A stretch of 64,000 bases of DNA. Origin: a virus. The notes beneath the pieces are model-generated. The model saw nothing but the letters and a program-made list of their open reading frames with translations. It made no database searches and was not told the DNA's origin. Within the stretch, counting starts at the first letter, position 1. Each line of letters opens with the position of its first letter. Positions 650 through 61,402 of the stretch are shown here, piece after piece. The translations under genes and the position numbers were made by a program. The DNA is taken from IMG/VR virus record IMGVR_UViG_3300045988_105168, positions 32,001 to 96,000 of that record; one strand, given 5' to 3'.

Positions 650-1708
650 CTATATTTTATCATAAATGTCAATAATTTTTTTTAAAATCTTGACAAACCT
701 TTTTATTTCGTGTAATGTATTCTGTTTACCTAAAGAAACACGTATTGTCTTCCTTGCATCTTCTTCGCTATATCCATAAGCCAATAGTATTTTAGACGGC
801 TCATCACTTGATGCATTACACGCACTACCTGCTGATACGGCAATACCCTCTTTATCTAATATGCCAACAGCAGTTTGAGCGTCTAGCTCATTAAAAGTTA
901 TATTCATAATGTTGTTATGATATGACATTTTTACGCCACTAAAATATAATTTAGAATAAATATAATTCATTAGTTTGCTATATTTCTCTTCTATCTCATA
1001 TCTGTTCTTATAAGCAAGTTCTAACGCTTTAGCCATTCCAACTATACCAGCAACATTTTCTGTTCCACCACGCAATTCGTGTTCTTGATGTCCATATATT
1101 AATGGTTTAAAGTTTTCTTGAAGGTCTCTACGAATAAACAATACACCTACACCTTTTGGAGCGCCAAATTTATGGCCACTAAAAGAAGCTGTCGCATACT
1201 TATATACTGGCTCATCTAAAGGTCTCATTACATAACTATCAGGGAACAAAGGTATCGCCGTTCTTTGTTCGTGTAGATTAATATATTCTTTACCAGCTGC
1301 CTGTGTTAAATCAACGTGACAACAATCAAAGCAGTCGTGATATATGTAATGTTTACCACCGACCTCACTATCAACCAATGGATAAGACATAATTTGAGCT
1401 TTACGAACATTGTTATTAGCCATTATCATTGAGTCGTGAGAGAATGGCGAACATTCACATTTAAAGTTTTTAGAAACCCACGAATTTGACTCGCTAGCAC
1501 CGCTTGTAAAGAATATTTCATCTTCGTAACACCCTAATAATTCAGCAATCTTTTCCCTCGCTTTATCAATAGCTAAACGGGCTTTTCTGCCCTCTTGATG
1601 AATACTGCTAGGATTTCCATATTCTGTCGTTAAATAAGGCATCATCGCTTTTAAAACACGCTTATCAATAGGTGTCGTAGCGGCGTTATCCAAATAAATT
1701 CTCTTCAC
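650..1708 (-). CDS. class V aminotransferase, NifS/IscS-like cysteine desulfurase
   Basis: N-terminal [12 protein letters not shown]-lysine motif [12 protein letters not shown] and active-site cysteine loop [10 protein letters not shown] are all present in the 352-aa ORF. Confidence 0.8.
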
Positions 1709-3410: not shown

Positions 3411-4490
3411 TTAAATAACCTTAAATTTTTCCTTTTTTACTTCTACGAACGAACCACCATTTTGGCTTGTGTACATTTTGTATCTAGTAAATCCACCACC
3501 ATTTTGAGATACGTAGATATATTTGTCAGATACAACCGTAACTGAATTGCTTCCATTTACCGCAGTTGTTCCACTACCGCTCCAATGTTTATTACCAGCC
3601 CAATCATAACAATATGCAAATATACTTGTCGTAGCAACATCCCCAGGTACAAAACCTAAAGCTTCAAATGTTCCAAAGGTATAGGTAACCGCTGTACTAT
3701 CGGTGTCTATACATTGTATTTCAGTACCATTTTTATACAAACGAATTCTATATCCGCCTATTGCTGTAGAGCCAGCTGATGCCGCCGTCCAAGTTGCTTT
3801 AATATTTGCCTTTGGTATTGGTTCACTTTGGTCATAGGTTAATACTGGTGCACCTGGGTTACCTGGAGCGTAGAAGGCCGTCGTAAAACTTGTAACGGCT
3901 GTATACGCCCTACCAGCACTATTAGCCGCGTTTCCTCGTAAATAATATGTTCTATTCGGTGTTAACCCAGTAATAGTACCTGCTTTACTACTAATACCCG
4001 CTACTACAGTACCAAAGTTTGTTAATGATGCATCGATATAACCATCGGATGGAGCTTCACCATTATTGTTAGACACACTAAACGAAGCGTAAACCGACGT
4101 ATCTTTAACACTACTATAACTAATTGCACTCAGTGTTGGTTTAAAAATATACGCAGACATTGTAAAATTACCACCGTGGTTATCTGTACGATTATAAAAT
4201 ACATATCCTGTAAAATATACAGTTATGGTTTTTGAACTTGCTCCGTTACCTATCCATACACTACCACTTGTACTACCAACTTTTGCTGGGAATGCATAAG
4301 TATTCCAAGCAACCGTACCTGGATTGTATACTGTCGTACCGTTAATCTTAACATTTACATTATAAATAGTATAGTAATTGCTACTACTATTACCAGTAGA
4401 ATATAATGCCCATTTCGCATACCCACCATCTTGCCAAACATCTAGTTGTAAATATCTCCCATCATAAGTATTACTATAAAAAGTAGCCAT
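3411..4490 (-). CDS. tail fibre-associated structural protein with FN3-like segments
   Basis: 359 aa, Ser/Thr/Gly/Asn-rich beta-type sequence with an FN3-like stretch (PGAPVLTYDQS...ATWTAASAGSTAIGGYRIRLYKNG). Sits between the fibre cassettes and the holin. Confidence 0.45.
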   Translation of the reverse strand: MATFYSNTYDGRYLQLDVWQDGGYAKWALYSTGNSSSNYYTIYNVNVKINGTTVYNPGTVAWNTYAFPAKVGSTSGSVWIGNGASSKTITVYFTGYVFYNRTDNHGGNFTMSAYIFKPTLSAISYSSVKDTSVYASFSVSNNNGEAPSDGYIDASLTNFGTVVAGISSKAGTITGLTPNRTYYLRGNAANSAGRAYTAVTSFTTAFYAPGNPGAPVLTYDQSEPIPKANIKATWTAASAGSTAIGGYRIRLYKNGTEIQCIDTDSTAVTYTFGTFEALGFVPGDVATTSIFAYCYDWAGNKHWSGSGTTAVNGSNSVTVVSDKYIYVSQNGGGFTRYKMYTSQNGGSFVEVKKEKFKVI

Positions 4491-4501
4491 CTACTCACCT
4501 C

Positions 4502-4900
4502 CTAACTTGCAGTATTTATCCATATAATTGTCTTTCCGCTTTGTGCTGATGGTTGTGTTGAACTAACTTTGATAATTGTATTCCCATCGCTCATTACACC
4601 ATAAGCATTTACGGCTTCTTTTACTCTTGCTGGCGTCATTACTTTATTTGTGATTGCACCAGCAGTTGCTTCGGCAGTTGTTGCAGCTGCTAATGATAAT
4701 GTTCCATCACTAAGATTTAAACCGTTACCAGTAGTAACTTTGATATGACCAAAAGCCGATGTTGTTGCTACACCAAAATCAGTTGTTGTTGACGCGTGAT
4801 TTTTTGTAGCCTTATTTGTATAAAGGTCTGTGAAATTTTCATTTAAAATATTTCTAAACACAGCACCTGATATACCATTATTTAAGGTTTGTTGTGCCAT
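4502..4900 (-). CDS. short tail fibre protein
   Basis: 132 aa. Contains a fibre-type motif AEATAGAITNKVMTPARVKEAV. Strong SD AAGGAGG upstream. Confidence 0.45.
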   Translation of the reverse strand: MAQQTLNNGISGAVFRNILNENFTDLYTNKATKNHASTTTDFGVATTSAFGHIKVTTGNGLNLSDGTLSLAAATTAEATAGAITNKVMTPARVKEAVNAYGVMSDGNTIIKVSSTQPSAQSGKTIIWINTAS

Positions 4901-4926
4901 ATAATCTCCTCCTTTTTAATTTAACT

Positions 4927-5445
4927 TTATGCGGTTCTTTTCCAAACAAATACATCAACTGTTGCTATATTATGCGAATGTGCGCCTCCGCCACCCGTAT
5001 TTTGATTGGTGGCTGTAGCCGCTCTTGTAGATACGTTATCATAAGGCGCACCAGTACTTGACCTTGACCAACCTAATTCAATACATCCAGTACTCCCATA
5101 AGTGGTTGAAACAACTATTGTATCCCCTGAACTACCGCTGTCATTATGCCTTAAACCGTGATGCTTGTGTGAATTTTGGGTATGGGTATGACTTGGCATT
5201 TGAGATACTGTTAATGTGTGTCCTTGAGTTCCCCATCCAACATAGTCTGTTTTACCAATACTAGATTGAGCCGCATATAAATATCCACCATATAATTGCT
5301 CCCAAGTACCACCAAAGTAGGTTGATGGATTTGTTTTATTAATTGACAAATAAATTGAACCAACTGGATATAAATCTTTTATATCAAGTGGTGTTATTGA
5401 TACATTTTTATTATTGTTATATATTCTTCCATATGGTTTTGCCAT
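4927..5445 (-). CDS. tail-collar (MdpB-like) fibre-tip protein, cassette 4
   Basis: PVGSIYLS...NPSTYFGGTWEQ, HTLTVSQMPSHTH, GGGGAHSHN and C-terminal VWKRTA. Paralogous to 6047-6625 and 6655-7217. No SD upstream of the ATG. Confidence 0.65.
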   Translation of the reverse strand: MAKPYGRIYNNNKNVSITPLDIKDLYPVGSIYLSINKTNPSTYFGGTWEQLYGGYLYAAQSSIGKTDYVGWGTQGHTLTVSQMPSHTHTQNSHKHHGLRHNDSGSSGDTIVVSTTYGSTGCIELGWSRSSTGAPYDNVSTRAATATNQNTGGGGAHSHNIATVDVFVWKRTA

Positions 5446-5466
5446 AAATTTCGGTTTATCGTGATA

Positions 5467-6016
5467 TTAAGCCGTACGTCTCCATACATAATTACTTGTG
5501 TTATAGACATCTATTTTAAAAGCCTTTAAACCAATACTATCTAATGTTCGCCCTGTTGCACTCCAAGATTGTAAATACACTGTAACTGGAGTAGATGTTA
5601 CAATTACATCAACGACCTGTCCACTATATTTGTTACCATCACTACAATGAACTGATTGTCTAGTATAAGCACCTCGTGAAGAAAGTTGTAATGTAAAACC
5701 TGTGCCACTACCATAACCAGAAGCAGAACCAATAAGTAACCATCTACCTTGTGGTAATGTAATAGACGCATTACTTATCCAAGTCGCTCTTGCTTCATCA
5801 GTTAACACCAACCCATTTACTTCCAATGTCTCATCTATTTGAGACCATTCTCCTCCAAATAAAGTTCTAGGGTTGACATTATTAGTACTGATATATATAG
5901 AGCCTGTAGGCTGTATACTATCACTTAATAACCTGCCCCCCCCCCTCACAATAGATACTCTTGTCAGAGATTAGGACAGGCAAATCTTTTACTTTTACTT
6001 TTCCATAATTCGCCAT
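5467..6016 (-). CDS. fibre-tip protein, cassette 3, interrupted by a frame offset at a G10 tract
   Basis: ATG 6016 gives MANYGKVKVKDLPVLISDKSIYCE, then the G10 run. The body RLLSDSIQPTGSIYISTNNVNPRTLFGGEWSQ...VWRRTA is open to 5467 in the frame reached with G9. The track shows only the GTG-started body (5467-5949). Confidence 0.6.
5936..5945 (-). repeat. homopolymeric G10 tract (C10 on the plus strand) inside cassette 3
   Basis: Counted directly: c5936-c5945. Confidence 0.95.
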
Positions 6017-6046
6017 AAAAATTTTATAGTTAATTAATCTTTACTT

Positions 6047-6625
6047 TTAAGCTGTACGTTTCCAAATGTAAACTACTAAGTACGGCATTAAATTGTTATG
6101 ATTACCACCACCACCAGTACTATTTGTAGTTCCATCGTGTTGGTGGGCTGATTTATTATTACCCGCATATGTCAACCACTCATTTAATCTATAATTTGTA
6201 GACCACCCCATACCACTATTGCCTATGAAGTCATTATTACTAGCGGCGCCTGCGCCAGCAGAATAATAAGCTATTTCGTGTCTGTGATGGCCACCAACAT
6301 TTGTAAGAAAATAATGTGTATGACTGGGCATTTCTGAAGTTGTTATTTTATGTGTAACCTCACCACCCATATTACCAGCATAAGCTACAAAGCTCCCTGC
6401 GTTAACAGTACCACACCAGTTGTCATTATTTGCCACAATAGTTCCTTCACCAACCAAAGTACGACCCTGAGCTATTTTTATCCAAGTACCACCAAAGTAA
6501 GTTGATGGATTTGTAGAATTAACACTAATATATACAGACCCGATAGGCCATACATCATAAGTATCAATCCCCATTATAGAAACGTTCTTTCCTTTTTGAT
6601 AAAGTCGACCATAAGGTTTTGCCAT
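6047..6625 (-). CDS. tail-collar (MdpB-like) fibre-tip protein, cassette 2
   Basis: PIGSVYISVNSTNPSTYFGGTW, HKITTSEMPSHTHY, GGGGNHNNLMPYLVVYIWKRTA. No SD upstream. Confidence 0.65.
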   Translation of the reverse strand: MAKPYGRLYQKGKNVSIMGIDTYDVWPIGSVYISVNSTNPSTYFGGTWIKIAQGRTLVGEGTIVANNDNWCGTVNAGSFVAYAGNMGGEVTHKITTSEMPSHTHYFLTNVGGHHRHEIAYYSAGAGAASNNDFIGNSGMGWSTNYRLNEWLTYAGNNKSAHQHDGTTNSTGGGGNHNNLMPYLVVYIWKRTA

Positions 6626-6654
6626 AATACTCGACGCTTCGGTTTATTATTTAT

Positions 6655-7217
6655 TTAAGCTGTTCTTTGCCATATATAAACCGCCATATAAGGCATTACG
6701 TTATTATGCCATCCTCCGCCACCTGTGTTTTGCATTGCAATACTGTTACTCCATCCTTTTGTATCCATACTGTAAAGGTAATCCCAGTTATTATAGCTTA
6801 ATGTAGCTAACGCATCTGAATTGTTGTTATAAGGATTATAACCATTACTATTCTTATTTAATGCTGTAACTTTATGGCAATGAGCTGGCATCTCACTTGT
6901 TGTTAGGTAATGATTATATTGGCCGCCCATTTCACCAGCCCAGAAACTATAATTATTATTATTAAGTGTTCCACACCAATTAGTGTTATTATCTGAAGGG
7001 TCTCCAACACCAACTAAGCATCTACCTTGACAAATCTGTGTCCAAGTGCCCCCAAATAAATCTTTAGGGTTTGTGGCGCTCATTGTTAAATAAATACTAC
7101 CGACAGGATAAACTAAATCAAACAGTTTATCGAGCGTCTTGCCCCCCCCTCATACAGTATTGAACTTGCATTTATAAGGACGGGACTATTTTTTACATAT
7201 GTTTTTCCTTTATTCAT
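6655..7217 (-). CDS. tail-collar (MdpB-like) fibre-tip protein, cassette 1, interrupted by a frame offset at a G8 tract
   Basis: ATG 7217 gives MNKGKTYVKNSPVLINASSILYE, then the G8 run. The body frame is open from the tract: GGGKTLDKLFDLVYPVGSIYLTMSATNPKDLFGGTW...GGGGWHNNVMPYMAVYIWQRTA. The track shows only the part from the internal ATG 7083. Confidence 0.6.
7142..7149 (-). repeat. homopolymeric G8 tract (C8 on the plus strand) inside cassette 1
   Basis: Counted directly: c7142-c7149. Confidence 0.95.
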
Positions 7218-7230
7218 AAGTTAAATCGTA

Positions 7231-7309
7231 AAGATTGTCATACCAAAAAGAGGTATACTAACTATAATATACCTCCTTTCTCTCGAAAGTTAGAAGGCAC
7301 GACAATCTT
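7231..7309 (-). terminator. compound hairpin with an intrinsic-terminator core between the leader ORF and cassette 1
   Basis: Minus strand inner stem GGAGGTATA (7276-7268) / TATACCTC(T) (7257-7249), 10-nt loop, then TTTTT. Outer 14-bp stem AAGATTGTCGTGCC (7309-7296) / GGTATGACAATCTT (7244-7231), allowing G-U pairs. Confidence 0.55.
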
Positions 7310-7349
7310 AGCGATGTGTCGCCCCCCCCCTAATCATATAATTTCTCAT
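7308..7349 (-). promoter_or_regulatory. 13-codon leader ORF carrying a G9 tract
   Basis: AAAAGGAGT SD, then ATG 7349: MRNYMIRGGATHR, stop at 7310-7308 at the foot of the hairpin. This is the only strong SD in the whole 4927-7349 fibre-cassette stretch. Confidence 0.4.
7322..7330 (-). repeat. homopolymeric G9 tract (C9 on the plus strand) inside the leader ORF
   Basis: Counted directly: c7322-c7330. Confidence 0.95.
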
Positions 7350-7371
7350 TAAAAATCACTCCTTTTATTCA

Positions 7372-7728
7372 TTAATATTCACCTGTTTTAACGAAGATTA
7401 GAGCGTTATCTTCTAAATACTTTACACGGTCTGCGATTGAGGTTCCTTTACCGTGTTTTAATGCAACCCAAGAATTTGATAAACGTCCATTTTTAGTACA
7501 TAATTCTACTGAGTCACCAACTGACAAACTTTCAGTACTTTTATTTAAGACATTATTTACTCTTCTTGCATTATCGGGTGGAATTGTAACGTTAACTGTA
7601 CCATCAGAATTAATCTGTGTTACAACCGCTGCAACAAAGGAAGTTATACCATAACTCGCTAAACGAGCATCTACAATGTCCTCAATTACTTTTTTAAATT
7701 CCTCTAATTGTCTTGCATCAAAATTCAC
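7372..7728 (-). CDS. small distal-tail/baseplate module protein
   Basis: 118-aa ORF abutting the 421-aa structural gene. Function inferred from position only. Confidence 0.4.
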   Translation of the reverse strand: MNFDARQLEEFKKVIEDIVDARLASYGITSFVAAVVTQINSDGTVNVTIPPDNARRVNNVLNKSTESLSVGDSVELCTKNGRLSNSWVALKHGKGTSIADRVKYLEDNALIFVKTGEY

Positions 7729-7729
7729 G

Positions 7730-8995
7730 TTACATCACCCCTTCTCCATAAGTATTAAAGTTTGCAATATTTGAACAGCTGATTGACATTTGGCATTGGT
7801 CTCCAATAGTATAAGAGATTGATTGAATTAAAAAACGTTCTCTTTGAATGTCATAGTATTGGTCTGTTATTGTAATTAAATTGTTTACAAATAATAATGG
7901 ATTGAATGATACATTGACACTCATAGTTGTTTTTAAAATACCAAATTTTCTTAATTCATAGTCCGCACGTTGTTGTGCTAAATCATCACTATAAATACTG
8001 CTGTCATTGATATATTCAATACGACGTCCAATTCTTTGCACGCACAATGGCGATGCTGGATTATTATTTTTAGCCATAGCCGAAAAGATTTCATTATTTA
8101 TATTATCCCCAACTACGTGTACTTCGTTTACTGCGTTTTCAAAATCATAATTGGCTGTCGCATTATAATAATCTCTTTCTGTATCTTCATAATCCCATAA
8201 TGAAGCCTTTTGAACGTCCAATGTTGTTTCGTTAATATTAATAAAACACAAGTTCCCTTGTGAGTTATAATACACTTCTGCATTTAAAATTGTACCGATT
8301 TCTAAAAGCATTTCTCCCAAAGTGCTTCCTGCGTCCTTTGACAAAGTATAAGGCATCTTTAATCCTGTGAACGCACGGTCATAAATGATTGGTTTTAAAT
8401 CTATTGGGGCACCAGAACCATTATCTAAAGTTAAAATACCAATAATTGCTTGCTCAATATCTGAGTTAACAGGTATTTCATATGTAGCCTCTAAAGTACC
8501 AGCTTTCCCCTCAAGCACCGCGAACTTATCAACAAGCGTCAAAGACACTTGCTTGTCTGAGTCTTGGTGACTTGCCGAAGGGTTCCCTAAAACATAAATT
8601 CCACGTGGGAACCAATATACTTGACCGTCGAATTCTAGCCCGACGTCAAATCTAAATCTGTTATGCACCCAAATTGTATTAATGCTTGGCGTGTATTTGC
8701 CATCTATATTAATTAAATTTATATTTACACTTTTTCTTTGTCCACTCTGATAATTCTCTGTAAAGTTACCAGAATTAATAATAATATCCTCTTGAGGAAT
8801 TTCATAGTTTATTGTTTCGTCTGGGTTAAGAACAAATAATCTAAAGCGTGGTTTATATACTGGACGCTTTAAAACATCTGTTAAATAACTCATACTAACA
8901 CTAGAACTATCAACTAAACGAAGGACTTCGCCATATTGACTCCATAAAGTTGAAGTAGATGTATCGGCTAAAGCCCTTGTATCGTAAGTCGCCAT
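7730..8995 (-). CDS. distal-tail/baseplate structural protein
   Basis: 421-aa ORF whose start overlaps the stop of the upstream gene. Third gene after the tape measure. No motif recognised. Confidence 0.45.
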   Translation of the reverse strand: MATYDTRALADTSTSTLWSQYGEVLRLVDSSSVSMSYLTDVLKRPVYKPRFRLFVLNPDETINYEIPQEDIIINSGNFTENYQSGQRKSVNINLINIDGKYTPSINTIWVHNRFRFDVGLEFDGQVYWFPRGIYVLGNPSASHQDSDKQVSLTLVDKFAVLEGKAGTLEATYEIPVNSDIEQAIIGILTLDNGSGAPIDLKPIIYDRAFTGLKMPYTLSKDAGSTLGEMLLEIGTILNAEVYYNSQGNLCFININETTLDVQKASLWDYEDTERDYYNATANYDFENAVNEVHVVGDNINNEIFSAMAKNNNPASPLCVQRIGRRIEYINDSSIYSDDLAQQRADYELRKFGILKTTMSVNVSFNPLLFVNNLITITDQYYDIQRERFLIQSISYTIGDQCQMSISCSNIANFNTYGEGVM

Positions 8996-31691: not shown

Positions 31692-33451
31692 TAATATATA
31701 TAACCTACTAAATATTTTAATGCGTCCACATCGGCACGTCCTATATCGGCTTTACCTTGTTTCTCATATTCAAAAACAACAGATAAACCATACATTAAAG
31801 AAGTGGCGCGGTCACGCTTTGCGGATTTAACTATACGGTCATATAATATTTGACCATTTAATCCGAAATCTCTTTTTATATTACTAAGCTCCTGCATTAA
31901 ATTATCGTGCTCTACGTGCATCACCTGTTCTGCCGCATCATACTTACCACTCTTATATAATTCATCAGTTTCGTTACTATCTACCAATAGTTTTAAACTC
32001 TGGTCTTCAAAACAACTCTTCATATAAGGATAATAAGTGCTATTGAATTCAGCCGTTGCTTGCACACCTCTAATAATAGGTTCAGCATTAGGCAATGTTC
32101 TCATAGTTTCTTCATCGTCATCTTGAATTAAAGGTGGATATTCTTCAATATCTCCTTTTTCATTTCGATAACTCCAAGGCTCTTCTAATAAAGATAAAAG
32201 ACCCTGTCCAGCACTACGAACGTCGATAACCAATTTCTCTGTATTAGGAAATTGAATATGCAATAATTCTCTTAATAATTCCCTTTGTTCTTTTAAACTA
32301 GCCCCGTTTAAAGTTTTGGTATACACAACGTGTTTGTCAAATGTACCATTACTTTTTGGGATAAGTTTAATAACGTGAGTACACGAGTTGTCCGAACCGC
32401 TCTTAGTTGATACGGCAACGTCGTGTGTAATTATGTATGAGTATTGTGTTTTTTTAGGCTGTGATAATTCACATCTATCTAAAACTCTACACTTATTAGT
32501 TAATGAATAAGGATAATAACTATCGTTAGAACTACCAACGAATGTTCCTTCATACTCATACGCAAATTTATCTAAAGACATATCTGGACTTTCTTTTTCT
32601 AGTTCAATTTCTTCCATAGAAAATAGTCCAGCGTCTATACCTACTTGATAATCTAAGCTAGCAACAAAATAATGTTTGTCACCACTTATCATCGAATGAT
32701 AGAAGTTTAAAAACTTTTGATATAAGTCGCAAGTCTTTAACCACGCAGATGAAATATAAATCATTCTACCTTTTTCAATAGGATTTTCTGGGTATCTATC
32801 GTGTAAATCGATAGCGTTTTGTCTTGGAGTTTTAATCATCGGTCTAATAACTTCTGTTAAAGTGTTATCTCTAACAAGTCTGGCCTCGTCCACTAAAACT
32901 AATTGAAAACGCCAACCACGAGCATTATCACCTTTTTGGTTAGTACCTAATGTAATTGCCCTAATTGAACTACCATTTTTTAGTTTAACTATACAGTCAT
33001 CGGTACCAGCCTTAATAGAAGCAATCTCTCTTCGGATATTTTCATTCTTAGATAATTCACCTTCTATTTTTTGTTTAATAACCATACGTGCTTGATTACC
33101 ATTTCCAGATACTATACCAATAGCCATACCTGGATATAAAATAGCCATACATATCATAAATACCGCACATAGCCAAGATTTACCAAGACCACGACAACAA
33201 ATTAACATTGCATTTGGGTATCTTGCCATAGCTCGCATAATTAACCTTTGAAAAGGGAATAAATTTATACCTAATATATCAACCGCAAATTTATCAATAT
33301 AGTATCTATAATAAGATAAGAATTTTGTCCATTCTTCATAATCGATACTCTCCTGATTAATTGGGTCGTAACTTAATGGGTTGTCAGTGTTGTTATTACT
33401 CCAATCTTGTTCTGCTCGTCTTTTTTTACTGAAGTTTTTATATGATGCCAT
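31691..33451 (-). CDS. terL: terminase large subunit
   Basis: 586 aa. Walker A-like CCRGLGKSW, Walker B LVLVDEA, and a C-terminal nuclease-type region with conserved acidic residues. Confidence 0.85.
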   Translation of the reverse strand: MASYKNFSKKRRAEQDWSNNNTDNPLSYDPINQESIDYEEWTKFLSYYRYYIDKFAVDILGINLFPFQRLIMRAMARYPNAMLICCRGLGKSWLCAVFMICMAILYPGMAIGIVSGNGNQARMVIKQKIEGELSKNENIRREIASIKAGTDDCIVKLKNGSSIRAITLGTNQKGDNARGWRFQLVLVDEARLVRDNTLTEVIRPMIKTPRQNAIDLHDRYPENPIEKGRMIYISSAWLKTCDLYQKFLNFYHSMISGDKHYFVASLDYQVGIDAGLFSMEEIELEKESPDMSLDKFAYEYEGTFVGSSNDSYYPYSLTNKCRVLDRCELSQPKKTQYSYIITHDVAVSTKSGSDNSCTHVIKLIPKSNGTFDKHVVYTKTLNGASLKEQRELLRELLHIQFPNTEKLVIDVRSAGQGLLSLLEEPWSYRNEKGDIEEYPPLIQDDDEETMRTLPNAEPIIRGVQATAEFNSTYYPYMKSCFEDQSLKLLVDSNETDELYKSGKYDAAEQVMHVEHDNLMQELSNIKRDFGLNGQILYDRIVKSAKRDRATSLMYGLSVVFEYEKQGKADIGRADVDALKYLVGYIY

Positions 33452-35590: not shown

Positions 35591-36376
35591 TTACGAGGTT
35601 TGGGTTTTCAAACCTCTCTTCTTTTCCCTTGTTTTTCTTAAATTTTCTTGATATGCACACATTGTGCAGTATTTTTTTGGTGAACGTGTTTTTTTAATAA
35701 CTATTCCACATATAGCGCATCTTTTGTATTCTGTAGGCTTTTCGTAAATCATTAATTCGCCTAGTACATTTTCATAATTTGAAATCTCAATCGCCACTTC
35801 GCCATTGTTTTTTGCGAATGGTATATAAATATAATTATGTGATTTAAAATTATCTATTTTATATAACCCTTTATTAAATAATAAATTACACAATCTATAT
35901 CTATCGGCCACTCTGAGTTTGGATAAACCAGCCAACTTCCATAAATCATTATTATTTTCAACAACCATCATAATTTCATTTTTCTTACTATAGAACTGTA
36001 AGTGTCTAACTTTACAAGCCCATTTATAATATACCAAATAAATAAATAACAAATTTCTCGCAAGCTCTTCCTCTATAGCCTCAATAATTTCTAATTCCTC
36101 TTTATATATTTCAACCTTAATACCAGTCACAAACTCATACTCGTTTGCTTTTGATATAATTTTAGAGAATATCATATCTTTATCTCTGTCTGATAAATAT
36201 TCACCACCAGACATAGGTATATTAGACAATACCTCTTTAATCTCAGAATGAGAATAGTTTAGAGATGTTAGATGTCGTACCAAAATACAACGTTCTCGAC
36301 CTTGTGTTTTTACAGTGCTGTATTTCTTATTAGCTATAATCTCTTCTGCATATTTCTTTTCATCGAATACTAACAT
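35591..36376 (-). CDS. hypothetical protein with C-terminal zinc ribbon and basic tail
   Basis: 261 aa, CAICG...CTMC then KTREKKRGLK. Start overlaps the RNA polymerase stop. Confidence 0.5.
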   Translation of the reverse strand: MLVFDEKKYAEEIIANKKYSTVKTQGRERCILVRHLTSLNYSHSEIKEVLSNIPMSGGEYLSDRDKDMIFSKIISKANEYEFVTGIKVEIYKEELEIIEAIEEELARNLLFIYLVYYKWACKVRHLQFYSKKNEIMMVVENNNDLWKLAGLSKLRVADRYRLCNLLFNKGLYKIDNFKSHNYIYIPFAKNNGEVAIEISNYENVLGELMIYEKPTEYKRCAICGIVIKKTRSPKKYCTMCAYQENLRKTREKKRGLKTQTS

Positions 36377-39120
36377 CTCTTTACCTCCTCTAAAGAATAA
36401 TGATGACCTAAATACTCAAATCCATTTTCATCTTCCACAACTACCTGTGATTTGCCATACGGAATAATATCTATAATATCATCACCTATAATATCCCAAA
36501 TACAATCATAAGACCATCCATTACGCTCACATAATACTATTAAGTGGTTAAATAGTTCTTTAAAAGATGTAAATAATTCTAACATCTCATTTTTATACTC
36601 ATCACGATTAGCATATAAGACATTTTTTAAAATCTCATTCATATCGTCATCTTGAATACCCTCATTGTCTACCAACGCCTCAATACCTTTATATTTACGT
36701 TGTGCCTTATACTCTTTATATATTTGTTCTAGTTTTGCCATCTTATCTTCTTCTACTTCTATGTCTTCTGCAAACTCTGGCAATAAACTTACACAATTAG
36801 GTTTGTATTTTATATCAAACTCTACATTCTCTATTTCTTTACATAATAAATTCATAATACAATCTGTTTCTAAAACAGGAGAATACTTACGATATTTTCT
36901 TAATAAATTCATTTCGCCCTCAGTGTGGTCTTTCTTTCGTAATAAAACTTTAATAGGGACTCCAAAATGAGTTAAACTAATACTATTAAAATTCTTCTCA
37001 TAATTCTTATAGTCATTCATAAGCGTATTATATAAATAAATAAAGAAATATGGTTTTTTCTTAACTACCATCGAATTGTATTTATATTTCTCTGCTTTGG
37101 TTATATCATCGTCGTCCTTATTGATATGTACCCAATGCCTCCAAGACTTAGGAAAGTTTGGTGGGGTTGTTCCTTTGATTTTATCAATCTCAGCCCCTTG
37201 TAATTCTCTCAGTAATTTTAATCTTTTCTCAATTTCTTCTTTTTGCTCTACCTGTTTTTCGCCTCTAAACAAAGGTAACATTGCAAGCATACTTGTAGAG
37301 TAGTTTGTAATCTGCCCTACTTTTGTATCAAGTCCTTTAATATCACATCTTACTTGATTTGGTAAAGTTATCTTTTGTGTAGGCACAGCCTCTTTATCAT
37401 ACATAATAGGGAGTTCATCTCTTTTTGCTCCTTTTAAGAAATAAGGATTGTCTGTTGCCATACAAATATCCCCATCAAAATCGGAGTCGGCGTGTTTTAC
37501 AACACTAATATCATAGATGTTATAAATAATACCGCTATATATATATTTATACCATTTACGCATTTCCTCAGTATTAGCAAGTTGTTGTACATTAACTTCA
37601 GAATAATGTGTCAATGGACTTCTTAACAAACAAACCTCTCCAGTAATATTTCTTTCATTCCAGAAGTTACCATAAACATAATTCGCTGGCAATAAACCGT
37701 CTGGACTTAACCCAAGAGCACTTCGACATTGAGCTACTGGGTCACTAATCATAAATGAATAATTACCCTTTACCCAAATACGACCGATTTTTGCTTGGCG
37801 TATACTTTCCTTAATAGAATTATAAATCTTTCTTTGAATAAATCCGTCTTTTAACATTTCAGGATTTTTAATGATAGCTTTTGTAAATACACTACCACAA
37901 GAATTAATAATACTATCAATATTAAGCGCTGGATTTTTTACACCAACATTATATGTTAAAGCATATTCAATATTTCCACTACAAATGTTTTTTATCCATT
38001 CTGTTGTATACGATACCAAACCAGCAATATCTTCTTTGGTTAAATCTAAAACTTGAATATATTGATAATTGGTTAAAACATATTCATCGTCTGCTTCTTT
38101 GTTATAACGGGCTACTCCCCATTTTAAATTATATGCTTTGTGATAACTTAAATATCCTTCCCAAGAAGAATAATATTTCGCCATCTTAAATTGACTCTCA
38201 GATAATAAAACGTCAATATCATCAATATTGTATTCTGTACCGTATCTATCTTTAATAGTTAAAACCCCGTGTTCTTTAGCATATGCTTTAAAATCAAAAG
38301 GAACCAAGTTACCTTTAACAAACGCTGTTCTTACAACAAACGAACAAGGTGTATAATTTAAATGCATATCCTCCGCCCAACATTTTGCCATTTCTGGACT
38401 TATTAAACCTTGACCATCGGCACTATTTAATTTTATATCTTTATAAATTTGTTCTACTGTATTACCATCTTCTGTCTTATTAATCCAGTTTAACTTTTGT
38501 TGAGGGATTACAGTATCAAAATCTTTAATGACACACACTCTTGGTTCTCTTACCCATAATACAGATGAAAAAGATAAAGCATAATAAGCGGATAATTTTG
38601 CTAGATTAATTGTCTTAATCTTTCCGTTAAGACCACACATCAATCTCTCTTGCATATAATCAAATAATTCTTCATTGATAAAAGAAACAGTATTTCTTCT
38701 CATTTGTCCTGAACCAACCATAAACCTAACATAATGTTTACCATTTAAATCAAAACCATTACGTCCCAATTCTCTATATTCTTTTTTTGTGACAACTTTT
38801 ATATTAATAATATCGTCTACAAATAATAAGTCGTCTAATTGTGATTGTAGGTCTTTAATCTGATTTAAACTATCTGGAGTTGTTGGTTGTTTTCTTATTT
38901 CTTTCATTTCTTTACGAATTGATTGAACTTGATTATATAAAGACACGTGGTCTCTATCGTCATTATAATACTCCCTAATTTTAGCGAGTACTAAATTATC
39001 ACCAATAGAAACAACATTCCCGTCTCTTGATGCCTCTTTAAATGAATAATGTGTCATTTTGCCAATCTTGTTTGATGGTATCTTATAGATATAATAAGAA
39101 TTTTGTAAAACCTTTGCCAC
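36370..39120 (-). CDS. single-subunit two-barrel RNA polymerase (YonO / cellular RdRP-like)
   Basis: 916 aa. LLRSPLTHYSEV followed by HADSDFDGDICMATDNPYF, the RxP...DxDGD catalytic signature of double-psi-beta-barrel RNAPs/RdRPs. GTG start 5 nt after AGGAGGG. Confidence 0.7.
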   Translation of the reverse strand: MAKVLQNSYYIYKIPSNKIGKMTHYSFKEASRDGNVVSIGDNLVLAKIREYYNDDRDHVSLYNQVQSIRKEMKEIRKQPTTPDSLNQIKDLQSQLDDLLFVDDIINIKVVTKKEYRELGRNGFDLNGKHYVRFMVGSGQMRRNTVSFINEELFDYMQERLMCGLNGKIKTINLAKLSAYYALSFSSVLWVREPRVCVIKDFDTVIPQQKLNWINKTEDGNTVEQIYKDIKLNSADGQGLISPEMAKCWAEDMHLNYTPCSFVVRTAFVKGNLVPFDFKAYAKEHGVLTIKDRYGTEYNIDDIDVLLSESQFKMAKYYSSWEGYLSYHKAYNLKWGVARYNKEADDEYVLTNYQYIQVLDLTKEDIAGLVSYTTEWIKNICSGNIEYALTYNVGVKNPALNIDSIINSCGSVFTKAIIKNPEMLKDGFIQRKIYNSIKESIRQAKIGRIWVKGNYSFMISDPVAQCRSALGLSPDGLLPANYVYGNFWNERNITGEVCLLRSPLTHYSEVNVQQLANTEEMRKWYKYIYSGIIYNIYDISVVKHADSDFDGDICMATDNPYFLKGAKRDELPIMYDKEAVPTQKITLPNQVRCDIKGLDTKVGQITNYSTSMLAMLPLFRGEKQVEQKEEIEKRLKLLRELQGAEIDKIKGTTPPNFPKSWRHWVHINKDDDDITKAEKYKYNSMVVKKKPYFFIYLYNTLMNDYKNYEKNFNSISLTHFGVPIKVLLRKKDHTEGEMNLLRKYRKYSPVLETDCIMNLLCKEIENVEFDIKYKPNCVSLLPEFAEDIEVEEDKMAKLEQIYKEYKAQRKYKGIEALVDNEGIQDDDMNEILKNVLYANRDEYKNEMLELFTSFKELFNHLIVLCERNGWSYDCIWDIIGDDIIDIIPYGKSQVVVEDENGFEYLGHHYSLEEVKRC

Positions 39121-59286: not shown

Positions 59287-59835
59287 ATGGAAACACTAAA
59301 TCAAAAATTAAAAAGATTAGTAAAAGAAAGTGAAAAAGAATTACAAGCCATTGGACTTGGAGATAAGTTAAAAAGTGATATTAAATACACAATTAACTAT
59401 AAAGCCAAAAAGAGATTAGGACAATGTTGTAATAAGAATAGTATTAATATTTCAAGTTGGTTATTAGAAATAGGGTTAGACCACGATATAAAAAATACTA
59501 TTATTCACGAAATTCTACATAGTTTTGAGGACACGATAGGACATAAAGAAAAGTGGCAATATTATGCTAGATATGTTAACAATAGAACTGATTATCATAT
59601 AACAAGATTAGCAAATGTTGACGGCATTTATGCAAGAGCAAATAAAACTAGACCACGAAGAGAAGTGAGTTATAAATATGAGATAACTTGTGAAAAATGT
59701 GGTAAAGTATTTTATAGACAAAAAATGACAAAAAGAATATTTAATAGTTTTACACAAGGAACTATGGTACATAAATCTTGTGGAGGACACGACTTTAAAA
59801 TAGTTGACATTAAAAATTGTGAAGTGTTATGGTAA
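59287..59835 (+). CDS. SprT-like zinc metalloprotease-domain protein with C-terminal zinc ribbon
   Basis: HEILH (HExxH) in an SprT-like context (KRLGQC...INISSWLL...TIIHEILH). CEKCG...HKSCGG. Confidence 0.6.
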   Translation: METLNQKLKRLVKESEKELQAIGLGDKLKSDIKYTINYKAKKRLGQCCNKNSINISSWLLEIGLDHDIKNTIIHEILHSFEDTIGHKEKWQYYARYVNNRTDYHITRLANVDGIYARANKTRPRREVSYKYEITCEKCGKVFYRQKMTKRIFNSFTQGTMVHKSCGGHDFKIVDIKNCEVLW

Positions 59836-59851
59836 AAGAGGAGGTAATTTT

Positions 59852-61402
59852 ATGGAAACTAATTATTTAAGAGATTATTATAAAAAAGAAACACACGACT
59901 TAACAAGTTTAATTAATGCAAATTCAAAGAACGAAGAAAAGATACAAGCAATTAAAAAAGAAATAACAAAATTGCAAAAGAGTATTGAATTAAAAAGTGA
60001 AGAATTGCATAAAGAAGTAGAAAGAGTGTATACAAGTAATTTTATACCTTTATCAAAAAGAGTTGTTGTGAGATATGACGGAAGAAGTAATGAAAGTTTA
60101 TTTGATATTGCTACGGGGTTAGAAGTTGATAATATAGAAGAGGACGATATTGTTTATACTATATATAACAAAAGTGATATTATCTCCGTAGTAGTTGGGT
60201 ATAGTTATGAGTTAGCAAGTATTATCACAAAAAAATATAAATATAATATTAATAGAGATAACACAAAATTTAACACAAAACTATTAGAAGAACGAGTAAT
60301 TAGTTTTATGGACGGCAAACAAGCAAGATTTGTTGCAGAAACTGAACAAGTTATTGAAGAAAACACTTCTTGGAGCGAATTACAACCTCTTGAAAGAATA
60401 AAAGACGGAGAGTTTGTTAACACTCTATATGGTGTAAATTATGAGGGAAGATATGATTTAAGAGAATTAAGAGAAAGAAATTTATGTAATAAATCTTTTG
60501 AAATTATTTTAAAAACATCTCCAAAAGAAATATTAGACGACTTATTAAAGTTAAATTTAGAACAAGCACAACCTATTCACAAGATTATAGGTGTATCACT
60601 AGAAACATATAATAAAGCCGTTGAAAGAGGTGTTATTAGAACATTATTTGATAATAGAGATTATATTGGTGGTAAAAAGAACGAAACTTATGGTATAAAT
60701 AAAACTGAAAGTGAGTGGTTTGAAACTATTGACGAAATGAAACACTACGAAGAAGATTTACAATTTTATAACATAGATTATAGTGGAGCATATTATTATC
60801 AAAGAAATGGAAGTTTATTAGAAACTTTATTAACAAGTTATGCAGACGAAGAAGTATTTAAAGATAATTATTCATTTGGTAAATTCTCAAATTATGTAAT
60901 TAATGAAACAATAAATCAAGGTTATAATAGAGTTAGAGATTTTGTAAGTGAATTAAGAGATTATCTTCGTATGTGTAAACAAGACGATATTAAGCCGACA
61001 TTATATTCAAGTTATTTAAAACAAACACACGATATAACAAGTAGAAATCATAATGTTAGAGTGGAAAAAGAAAACGAAGAAACATTTAAGAGCAGATATA
61101 AAGACTTTAAAGAATATAAAGGAAAAGTTTATAGTGTAGTAGCACCAAAAGATAGTAATGACTTGAAAAAAGAGGGAGATACATTAAATCATTGTGTAGC
61201 AAGTTATATTAAAAGAGTTATTGACGGAGAGTGTTTAATTTACTTTTTAAGAAAAGACAAAGAAGAAAGTTTAATAACATTTGAAGTTAGACATAACACA
61301 ATAGTACAAGTAAGAGGACTACACAATAGAAAGCCGACTGAAAACGAACAACAAGCATTAAAAGAGTTTGCTAAATATAGAAAAATGGAGGTAAATTTCT
61401 AA
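59852..61402 (+). CDS. PcfJ-like protein
   Basis: C-terminal EGDTLNHCVASYIKRVIDGECLIYFLR...FEV...VRG is the PcfJ-type signature. The likely start is ATG 59852 (GAGGAGG upstream), not the track's 59804. Confidence 0.55.
   Translation: METNYLRDYYKKETHDLTSLINANSKNEEKIQAIKKEITKLQKSIELKSEELHKEVERVYTSNFIPLSKRVVVRYDGRSNESLFDIATGLEVDNIEEDDIVYTIYNKSDIISVVVGYSYELASIITKKYKYNINRDNTKFNTKLLEERVISFMDGKQARFVAETEQVIEENTSWSELQPLERIKDGEFVNTLYGVNYEGRYDLRELRERNLCNKSFEIILKTSPKEILDDLLKLNLEQAQPIHKIIGVSLETYNKAVERGVIRTLFDNRDYIGGKKNETYGINKTESEWFETIDEMKHYEEDLQFYNIDYSGAYYYQRNGSLLETLLTSYADEEVFKDNYSFGKFSNYVINETINQGYNRVRDFVSELRDYLRMCKQDDIKPTLYSSYLKQTHDITSRNHNVRVEKENEETFKSRYKDFKEYKGKVYSVVAPKDSNDLKKEGDTLNHCVASYIKRVIDGECLIYFLRKDKEESLITFEVRHNTIVQVRGLHNRKPTENEQQALKEFAKYRKMEVNF

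Follow-up and report, generated by a model that had tools for sequence, protein, structure and literature searches.

A poly-G tract in a gut phage as a likely slippage switch between alternative tail-tip genes

The stretch analyzed here, 64,000 nucleotides from positions 32,001 to 96,000 of the IMG/VR virus record IMGVR_UViG_3300045988_105168 (hereafter the window; 31.7% GC), comes from an uncultured phage of ~115 kb found in the human and pig gut. On its minus strand, a run of eight G (7142–7149) interrupts the first of four small tandem genes (cassettes 1–4), each coding for a Gp10_C tip domain. We conclude that this run is likely a contingency locus working by slipped-strand mispairing, through which alternative tail-tip genes are switched: the length of the tract sets the reading frame, it differs between otherwise identical genomes, and different tracts vary independently. 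In the mechanism that we propose, slipped-strand mispairing during phage DNA replication would shift the run one G at a time; the tip, a protein of 187 amino acids (aa), would be made from a G9 template, and G8, G7 or G10 would bring a stop after 29–34 residues and no tip. The tips would dock via their N-terminal leaders onto an anchor or onto the baseplate, and the hypervariable middle of the domain may bind a host surface receptor. Because the gated cassettes switch independently, a phage population would be a mix of virions that differ in their sets of tips, which, by analogy with the Fletchervirus phages discussed below, may represent bet-hedging on host range.

Reading frame of cassette 1

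The initial annotation, made from the letters of the window, had described a gene opening at ATG 7217 with a leader, a tract of eight G and an early stop, and each of these elements was recovered from the sequence, the list of open reading frames (ORFs) and the rebuilding of the gene. In the assembled frame, the ORF spans 7113–7217 (34 aa) and reads GGARRSINCLI after the tract (...EGGARRSINCLI) before reaching TAG 7115–7113. When cassette 1 was rebuilt with 6–12 G, a continuous gene was obtained with G6, G9 and G12 alone (186–188 aa, ending at 6655), G7 and G10 terminating at 29–30 aa and G8 and G11 at 34–35 aa. At G9, the tract is in frame, codes for a Gly-Gly-Gly linker between the leader and the domain and gives a protein of 187 aa (...YEGGGKTLDKLFDLVYPVGSIYLTMSATNP...RTA), so that the frame one G away is indeed open from the tract to 6655, as had been claimed. 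Tract length is the sole lesion of the gene, and a change of one G in either direction toggles it between a full-length and a truncated product. Like the poly-G contingency loci of the Fletchervirus type, it is a G run of at least seven inside a coding sequence.

The repaired 187-aa protein matches the Pfam family Gp10_C (PF21939) over residues 32–186 (profile positions 1–139 of 139, E 3.6e-25), with a score of 89.9 bits versus a cut-off of 27, and the full profile is covered only after repair. The gene called at this place is a 142-aa ORF (6655–7083) starting MSATNP..., and the near-invariant YPVGSIY strand of the Gp10_C domain lies upstream of its start. Since the domain begins before ATG 7083, this codon is an internal Met, in agreement with the first reading of the sequence.

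The window contains three G/C runs of at least eight, all of them G on the minus strand and all within 1.4 kb: 5936–5945 (G10, in cassette 3), 7142–7149 (G8) and 7322–7330 (G9), the last of which, a third variable tract, was absent from the initial annotation of this locus. The pattern GGGGGGGG (G8) has 6 matches in the window versus 0.10 expected, and none of the 100 shuffles reached 6. GGG is the rarest Gly codon in the window (7.9%), and GGG-GGG encodes one of the 67 Gly-Gly pairs of the long ORFs. Run counts, shuffles and the rarity of GGG thus indicate that the G runs are kept despite the composition of the genome and its codon habits.

Tract length among identical genomes and relatives

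Independent assemblies of the same strains were retrieved by exact-protein look-up. In a sister strain, the alignment of contigs L043 and L045 spans 10,430 bp without a mismatch, and its single gap is the cassette 1 tract, with G9 in L043 and G8 in L045; the 187-aa gene is called in the former and a 142-aa fragment in the latter. Both states are duplicated on a second contig from another source, 100% identical to the first (L044 for L043, L046 for L045). The window strain is represented by ten distinct assemblies (L036–L040 and L055–L060, L039 being the same as L059) from human gut metagenomes, several of which belong to PRJNA217052, a project cited by a Fiji-cohort study. All ten show 0 mismatches to the window over 2.9–8.6 kb each. 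Two of them (L037 and L038) are identical to it throughout, with a cassette 3 tract of G10; each of the other eight shows a single gap relative to it, in the cassette 3 tract, which there measures G8 or G9. Because cassette 3 changes while cassette 1 stays at G8, the two tracts vary independently. The upstream tract 7322–7330 likewise stays at G9 in the window-strain assemblies that cover cassette 1.

These comparisons uphold the initial preference for independent slippage over a sequencing bias, which had been drawn from the two interrupted cassettes of the window being OFF (out of frame) through opposite errors: G8 in cassette 1 and G10 in cassette 3 are both confirmed, each gene is open at G9, and to these are now added the one-gap pair L043/L045 and the occurrence of G8, G9 and G10 at cassette 3 in assemblies without a mismatch. 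That G9 is the shared ON length holds for these two cassettes and does not extend to paralogous cassettes in relatives, which are open at G8, G9 or G10.

The protein collection contains, exact to the residue, the 187-aa product that the window would encode at G9 (P0064), on two contigs that both carry G9 (L041 and L042). Dozens of relatives, moreover, have the same leader joined in frame to diverse bodies, and this disposes of the possibility, raised at the outset, that the N-terminal and body pieces are never joined. The OFF form of cassette 1, the 142-aa fragment, is found on 33 contigs of the collection. For cassette 3, the 182-aa ON product (P0078) is found on 11 contigs, the G10 OFF form on 13 and the G8 OFF form on 4. 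The nucleotide sequence of cassette 1 in L041 and L042 (L041:5001-5564) is that of the repaired window gene, with flanks ~94–97% identical, which suggests that cassette 1 was recently exchanged by recombination between the window and L041.

Homopolymers are error-prone, and the deviations could in principle stem from sequencing or assembly, the true tract being always in frame and the gene intact. The coverage of the related contig L034 (1.3x), the uniformly short tracts of L003, which might reflect platform compression, and the lack of any A/T run of at least seven within the compared regions as an internal control would all fit such an explanation. However, each length state stands on two independent, fully identical contigs, and the contig names point to short-read assemblies made with SPAdes and MEGAHIT, one of them at 272x. 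Furthermore, the deviations go both ways within one window, the in-frame length varies by cassette (8, 9 or 10), which defeats any one error model meant to restore them all, and about three quarters of the tract copies are out of frame; although disfavoured by codon usage, GGG runs are kept at the same junction across diverged strains. Since errors would have to occur in both directions, differ between samples, be reproduced on independent contigs and strike G tracts alone, whose in-frame lengths are not the same, an assembly error is very unlikely.

Megablast of the array against GenBank phages gave no match, so there is no annotated close relative in GenBank; relatives are plentiful in IMG/VR, GTDB genomes and metagenomes. 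Contigs whose baseplate protein is ~88–90% identical to that of the window either have the same array, with poly-G at homologous positions, or miss the array, and G runs of at least seven are absent from relatives at ~60% baseplate identity. The array tracts measure 9,9,9,8,9,8 in L002, 7,7,8,8,8,8 in L003 and 7,9 in L024. The tract homologous to that of cassette 1 (8 in the window) measures 9 in L002, 7 in L003, 9 in L024, 8 in L032, 9 in L033, 8 in L034 and 8 in L035; with G9, the gene is a complete ORF of 155–170 aa in L002 and L033 and is open to the contig end in L024, with the same leader and another body. Six poly-G cassette types were distinguished, with in-frame lengths of 9, 9, 10 (or 7), 9, 8 and 9, and L002 and L003 have one ON cassette each, a different one. 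The frame relation across the tract is not conserved, homologues being in frame, +1 or −1. In all 44 tract-bearing cassette copies (27 sequences), a change of ±1 gives an ORF of 72–197 aa, complete with the terminal ..Y.W.R.. motif in 38 copies and cut by the contig end alone in the other 6; no second lesion was found in any of the 44. Cassette 1 is ON in 3 of the 8 strains of an unbiased set, and 12 of the 44 copies are ON overall. As this share is close to the one-third expected under free phase, no state is fixed.

These data bear on two further explanations. The first is that cassette 1 is a decaying pseudogene, a dead paralogue with an ordinary inactivating frameshift: it is OFF in every assembly of the window strain, its OFF form is on 33 contigs and its ON form on 2, and genuine decay does occur in L025, where the start of cassette 1 has changed from ATG to ATA and the tract is interrupted. 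This is countered by tract length being the only lesion, with ±1 restoring 44 of 44 copies; by the nucleotide identity of cassette 1 between the repaired window and L041 despite flanks of ~97%; by the differences between the window and L043 in cassette 1, which comprise 11 synonymous and 8 non-synonymous codons; and by the ON alleles of an otherwise identical sister strain. Taken together, the isogenic ON and OFF alleles, the exact ON product, the 44 repairable copies and the synonymous excess exclude a dead gene for practical purposes.

The second is recoding, in which ribosomal frameshifting or RNA-polymerase slippage would yield a full-length tip from OFF templates and the DNA length would tune the amount. 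The sequence G GGG GGG fits the slippery pattern X XXY YYZ, the phage codes for its own candidate YonO-like RNA polymerase, and recoding could coexist with slippage at the DNA level. Programmed frameshift sites differ, however, from a gene that is in frame, −1 and +1 in close relatives; moreover, no conserved stimulatory structure follows the tract, and G8 and G10 would require shifts in opposite directions. We therefore regard recoding as improbable, if somewhat less so than the two preceding explanations, and retain slippage of the tract during DNA replication as the likely source of the two states.

Tip proteins and comparison with known switches

Beyond its Pfam match, the cassette 1 body matches the C-terminal domain of T4 gp10 (PDB 2fkk; E 1.3e-12), and the tip domain has further homologues among the tail, tail-fibre and baseplate PHROGs. 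Matches found by tblastn fall within 'antireceptor' genes of the Lactobacillus delbrueckii phages Ld3, Ld17, c5 and PMBT4 and within small tail genes of Streptococcus prophages. Sixty-two relatives were retrieved from the database; in at least 18, the near-invariant start M[ND]KGKTYVKN.PVLINASSILYEGGGKTLDKLFDLVYPVGS is followed by highly divergent middles, and the end, PPY..VY.W.RTA, is conserved. The invariant leader plus KTLDKLFDLVYPVGS is joined to very different bodies in no fewer than 18 proteins of the database. Exchangeable receptor-binding tips mounted on a fixed docking piece would be expected to show just such an invariant start and variable middle, and the cassette 1 product is a probable tail-tip, receptor-binding protein.

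The 118-aa protein encoded just upstream of the array offers a candidate for the docking partner. In L007 (9268–10122, 284 aa) and L010 (9276–10577, 433 aa), its homologue is fused directly to a Gp10_C tip: the fusion proteins align N-terminally with the 118-aa protein and C-terminally with the cassettes, and these contigs have no cassettes and no G tracts. The L007 junction, ...KHGK/TKENIFDLIYPV..., corresponds in the alignment to the residues that immediately follow the cassette 1 tract, GGG/KTLDKLFDLVYPV. Neither the 118-aa gene nor cassettes are present in L001 and L004 (downstream of 9263), and the split-plus-array layout co-occurs with poly-G tracts. We infer that an ancestral single-chain fibre was split into a 118-aa anchor, with a 23-residue C-terminal tail of its own, and free tips bearing leaders, a layout that would let several tips compete for, or share, one site.

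Several points weigh against a switch of host-binding tips. The differences in length are known from assembled contigs alone, as differences between assemblies. In the window strain, the cassette 1 tract is G8 in all 11 covering assemblies (the window included; L060 does not cover it), so that variation of this very tract is documented only in sister strains; the constancy of G8 may reflect slower switching than at G9 or G10, or an OFF state favoured in that host population. The initial label 'fibre-tip' is sound as regards domain homology to Gp10_C, but function, including receptor binding, is read from homology, and T4 gp10, for its part, is a structural component of the baseplate. The AlphaFold2 model obtained for the repaired protein (predicted local distance difference test score of 54.9, from a 24-sequence alignment) is too poor for a fold search. 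The host is probably a member of the Bacillota, but this assignment is weak, the bins of metagenome-assembled genomes (MAGs) disagreeing: one contig is binned with Candidatus Coprovivens (Bacilli) and another with a 'Proteobacteria' MAG. Finally, all four cassettes are without a Shine-Dalgarno (SD) sequence.

Poly-G contingency loci are familiar from surface genes of Campylobacter, Neisseria and Haemophilus. The tracts described here share with them the mutational mechanism, the ON/OFF logic and the existence of 'locked' interrupted alleles, but they are virus-borne and have parts of the virion as their targets, where the bacterial loci alter the cell surface. For the latter kind of allele, compare L025 (9626–9794, 9859–10377), with 'locked' or decayed alleles: its upstream tract is interrupted (GGGGGAGGG) and, besides the cassette 1 start mentioned above, the tract of a neighbouring cassette is a short G6 that is in frame (..YEGGKQRS..).

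Among phages, the closest parallel is provided by the Campylobacter Fletchervirus phages, in which, as reported for Sorensen et al. 2021 by bioRxiv 10.1101/2025.10.21.683753, receptor-binding protein genes contain tracts of 7–11 G. According to the literature citing that study (Cell Rep 2021), such tracts (~7–11 G) lie in several host-recognition genes of one phage, and changes in their length switch genes and create subpopulations, as proposed here. The differences are that the present phage belongs to an unrelated lineage, is a gut phage probably of Bacillota and is known from sequence alone; that its tract is a glycine linker at a fixed leader/domain junction of small free-standing Gp10_C tips; and that it has an array of paralogous cassettes, constitutive ones beside gated ones, plus a tract in a leader mini-ORF. 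Gomez, Barrick and Waters (bioRxiv 10.1101/2025.10.21.683753) describe contingency loci of T2, T4 and other coliphages, most of them short runs in genes like agt and rIIA, and found repeats to be under-represented in tail-fibre genes. Polymerase slippage on homopolymers, reversible frameshifts and bet-hedging are common to these loci and to ours, whereas the long G runs found here are concentrated exclusively in tip genes. Inversion of the Mu G segment or the P1 C segment and diversity-generating retroelements (Mtd of Bordetella phage BPP-1) also provide several receptor-binding tips from one genome; here, the switch is a frameshift, with neither recombination nor retro-mutagenesis. As for the protein itself, the C-termini of T4 gp10 (2fkk) and of the L. 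delbrueckii phage 'antireceptors' have a homologous domain with a YPVGSIY start and a PPY..VY.W.R end, but in the array the domain makes up a free-standing protein of ~150–190 aa that starts with a leader of 23 residues, whereas in those phages it closes a long baseplate or fibre protein.

In the literature that we found, poly-G switching of phage receptor-binding genes is characterised by experiment only in Campylobacter phages, a few unstudied tracts being cited besides; our search found no report for phages of Gram-positive or gut bacteria, and a review of adsorption to Gram-positive bacteria is silent on poly-G switching. The present case would extend this strategy to an uncultured phage of the human and pig gut, which would deploy it through a modular set of small tips that can be interchanged. 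Isogenic genomes in the ON and the OFF state can already be found in public metagenomes, and bet-hedging on host range by gut phages becomes directly testable with existing read sets. Note that gene callers systematically mis-annotate such genes as 142-aa fragments and that predicting host range from a consensus genome would go wrong for such phages. The combination of an invariant leader and a variable tip is also a natural scaffold for host-range engineering.

The array, its neighbourhood and the upstream leader region

In downstream order on the minus strand, a tape-measure-like protein (1605 aa) is followed by three proteins of baseplate type (the last of 421 aa, DUF5048 / tail PHROG), the 118-aa protein, the four small Gp10_C proteins, proteins of 132 and 359 aa, a holin and a CHAP/LysM endolysin. 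The features of the array and of the region preceding it are listed in the table.

Table. Features of the tip array and of its upstream leader region
Feature	Position	Strand	Description
118-aa protein	7372..7728	minus	probable anchor stub for tips; homologous to the N-terminal ~95 residues of single-chain Gp10_C-tipped fibres in relatives
Mini-ORF	7308..7349	minus	strong SD (AAGGAG), ATG 7349; seventh codon starts the third poly-G tract, 7322-7330 (G9)
16-bp hairpin	7245..7280	minus	GAAAGGAGGUAUAUUA-UAGU-UAGUAUACCUCUUUUU, terminator-like, then U5; between mini-ORF and cassette 1
Cassette 1	6655-7217	minus	leader MNKGKTYVKNSPVLINASSILYE; G8 at 7142-7149
Cassette 1 leader	7150..7217	minus	ATG 7217 + 22 codons, MNKGKTYVKNSPVLINASSILYE; near-invariant N-terminal segment, same on many different bodies
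Cassette 1 poly-G tract	7142..7149	minus	exactly G8 (OFF), then C
Premature stop TAG	7113..7115	minus	met in the G8 frame of cassette 1
Cassette 1 body	6655..7141	minus	Gp10_C tip domain, KTLDKLFDLVYPVGSIY...PYMAVYIWQRTA, stop 6655-6657
Cassette 2	6047..6625	minus	constitutive Gp10_C tip, leader MAKPYGRLY..., no tract, 192 aa
Cassette 3	5467..6016	minus	leader MANYGKVKVKDLPVLISDKSIYCE; tract 5936-5945 G10 (OFF) + body
Cassette 4	4927..5445	minus	constitutive Gp10_C tip, leader MAKPYGRIY..., no tract, 172 aa

The window thus has two constitutive cassettes and two poly-G gated ones, both of the latter OFF, and arrays in relatives comprise 4–8 stand-alone tip cassettes (up to 7–8, versus four in the window). 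Leaders fall into two classes, the constitutive one and one with an insertion ending ...YEGGG or ...CEGGG that is written as a G run. The cassette 2 protein is identical on 33 contigs, and cassette 3 is open only at G9 (182 aa) or G12 (182–183 aa for the two lengths). Inverted repeats of at least 18 nt number 0 in 4300–7800 and, since all cassettes also have the same orientation, the array is not an invertible segment; we consequently rejected a tail-fibre switch of the Mu Gin / P1 Cin type. A diversity-generating retroelement acting on the tip array was rejected as well, no long repeat of the template-repeat/variable-repeat kind having been seen.

The gaps between cassettes are 21–30 nt, and no SD sequence lies within 25 nt of the cassette starts 7217, 6625, 6016 and 5445, unlike ~24 of 26 neighbouring genes, which have AGGAGG-type sites. 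Closely spaced cassettes without SD suggest coupled or re-initiated translation, with possible polarity of the OFF states.

The region between the 118-aa gene and cassette 1 contains the third tract, within a mini-ORF of 13 codons at G9, 28 at G8 and 29–30 at G7 or G10. This tract ranges from 7 to 9 across strains and measures 7,9,8,9,9,8,8 in L048–L054, all of which encode the identical cassette 1 protein P0010. At G9, the mini-ORF ends before the 16-bp hairpin and, at G8, G7 or G10, in the loop of that hairpin; a second predicted hairpin (7290–7333) uses the G tract as one of its arms. The leader region has a fold z-score of −4.66 and an RNAalifold consensus structure, in which, among 10 leader-region variants, no pair shows compensatory changes. 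By eye, a double change from C-G to U-A fits an alternative long-range stem (GAUUGUCGUGCC / GGUAUGACAAUC), but it was set aside as evidence, involving two haplotype groups only. An Rfam scan of the leader region gave only a chance-level match (E 0.19). A scan for sigma-70 promoters and terminators was not above the shuffle background and did not call hairpin 7245–7280. Two other roles for this region were considered and rejected: tract 7322–7330 is flanked by no acceptable −35/−10 pair, as a promoter spacer would be, and read-through from the mini-ORF into cassette 1 meets stops in all three frames.

Altogether, this layout suggests that expression of the array is coupled and controlled by the leader region. 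One possible, still tentative extension is a two-tier combinatorial phase variation, in which each poly-G cassette would be an independent switch and the mini-ORF a master gate on the array, OFF states would be polar on downstream cassettes, and the design would have spread to an unrelated contractile-tail phage (L047). As the sole SD-led ORF before four cassettes without SD, the mini-ORF would decide, through the length of its tract, whether ribosomes halt before hairpin 7245–7280 or enter it, and gating would act through transcription read-through or translational re-initiation into the array.

L047 (1273–1887) carries contractile-tail baseplate genes (Sheath_initiator, Baseplate_J, Mu Gp48) and three Gp10_C cassettes. 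In one of them, a G10 tract (at 1337) lies at the same junction of leader and domain, ..HKR-GGG-W.., and the gene is in frame with it; the leader/poly-G tip design is therefore not confined to one phage lineage.

Three other genes of the window deserve mention. A 916-aa protein (36370–39120, minus strand) matches the Pfam RdRP family PF05183 (E 1e-17) and is a candidate RNA polymerase of the YonO kind, single-chain and two-barrel, which, if so, would account for the missing sigma-70-like promoters in the late region. Beside the endolysin gene, a cysteine-desulfurase-like gene (650–1708, minus strand), an unusual cargo for a phage, is kept in relatives and is annotated Aminotran_5 in the homologous loci of L041, L043 and L048. 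Finally, a 532-aa protein encoded on the plus strand (59804–61402) has a PcfJ-like C-terminal domain (E 9e-25).

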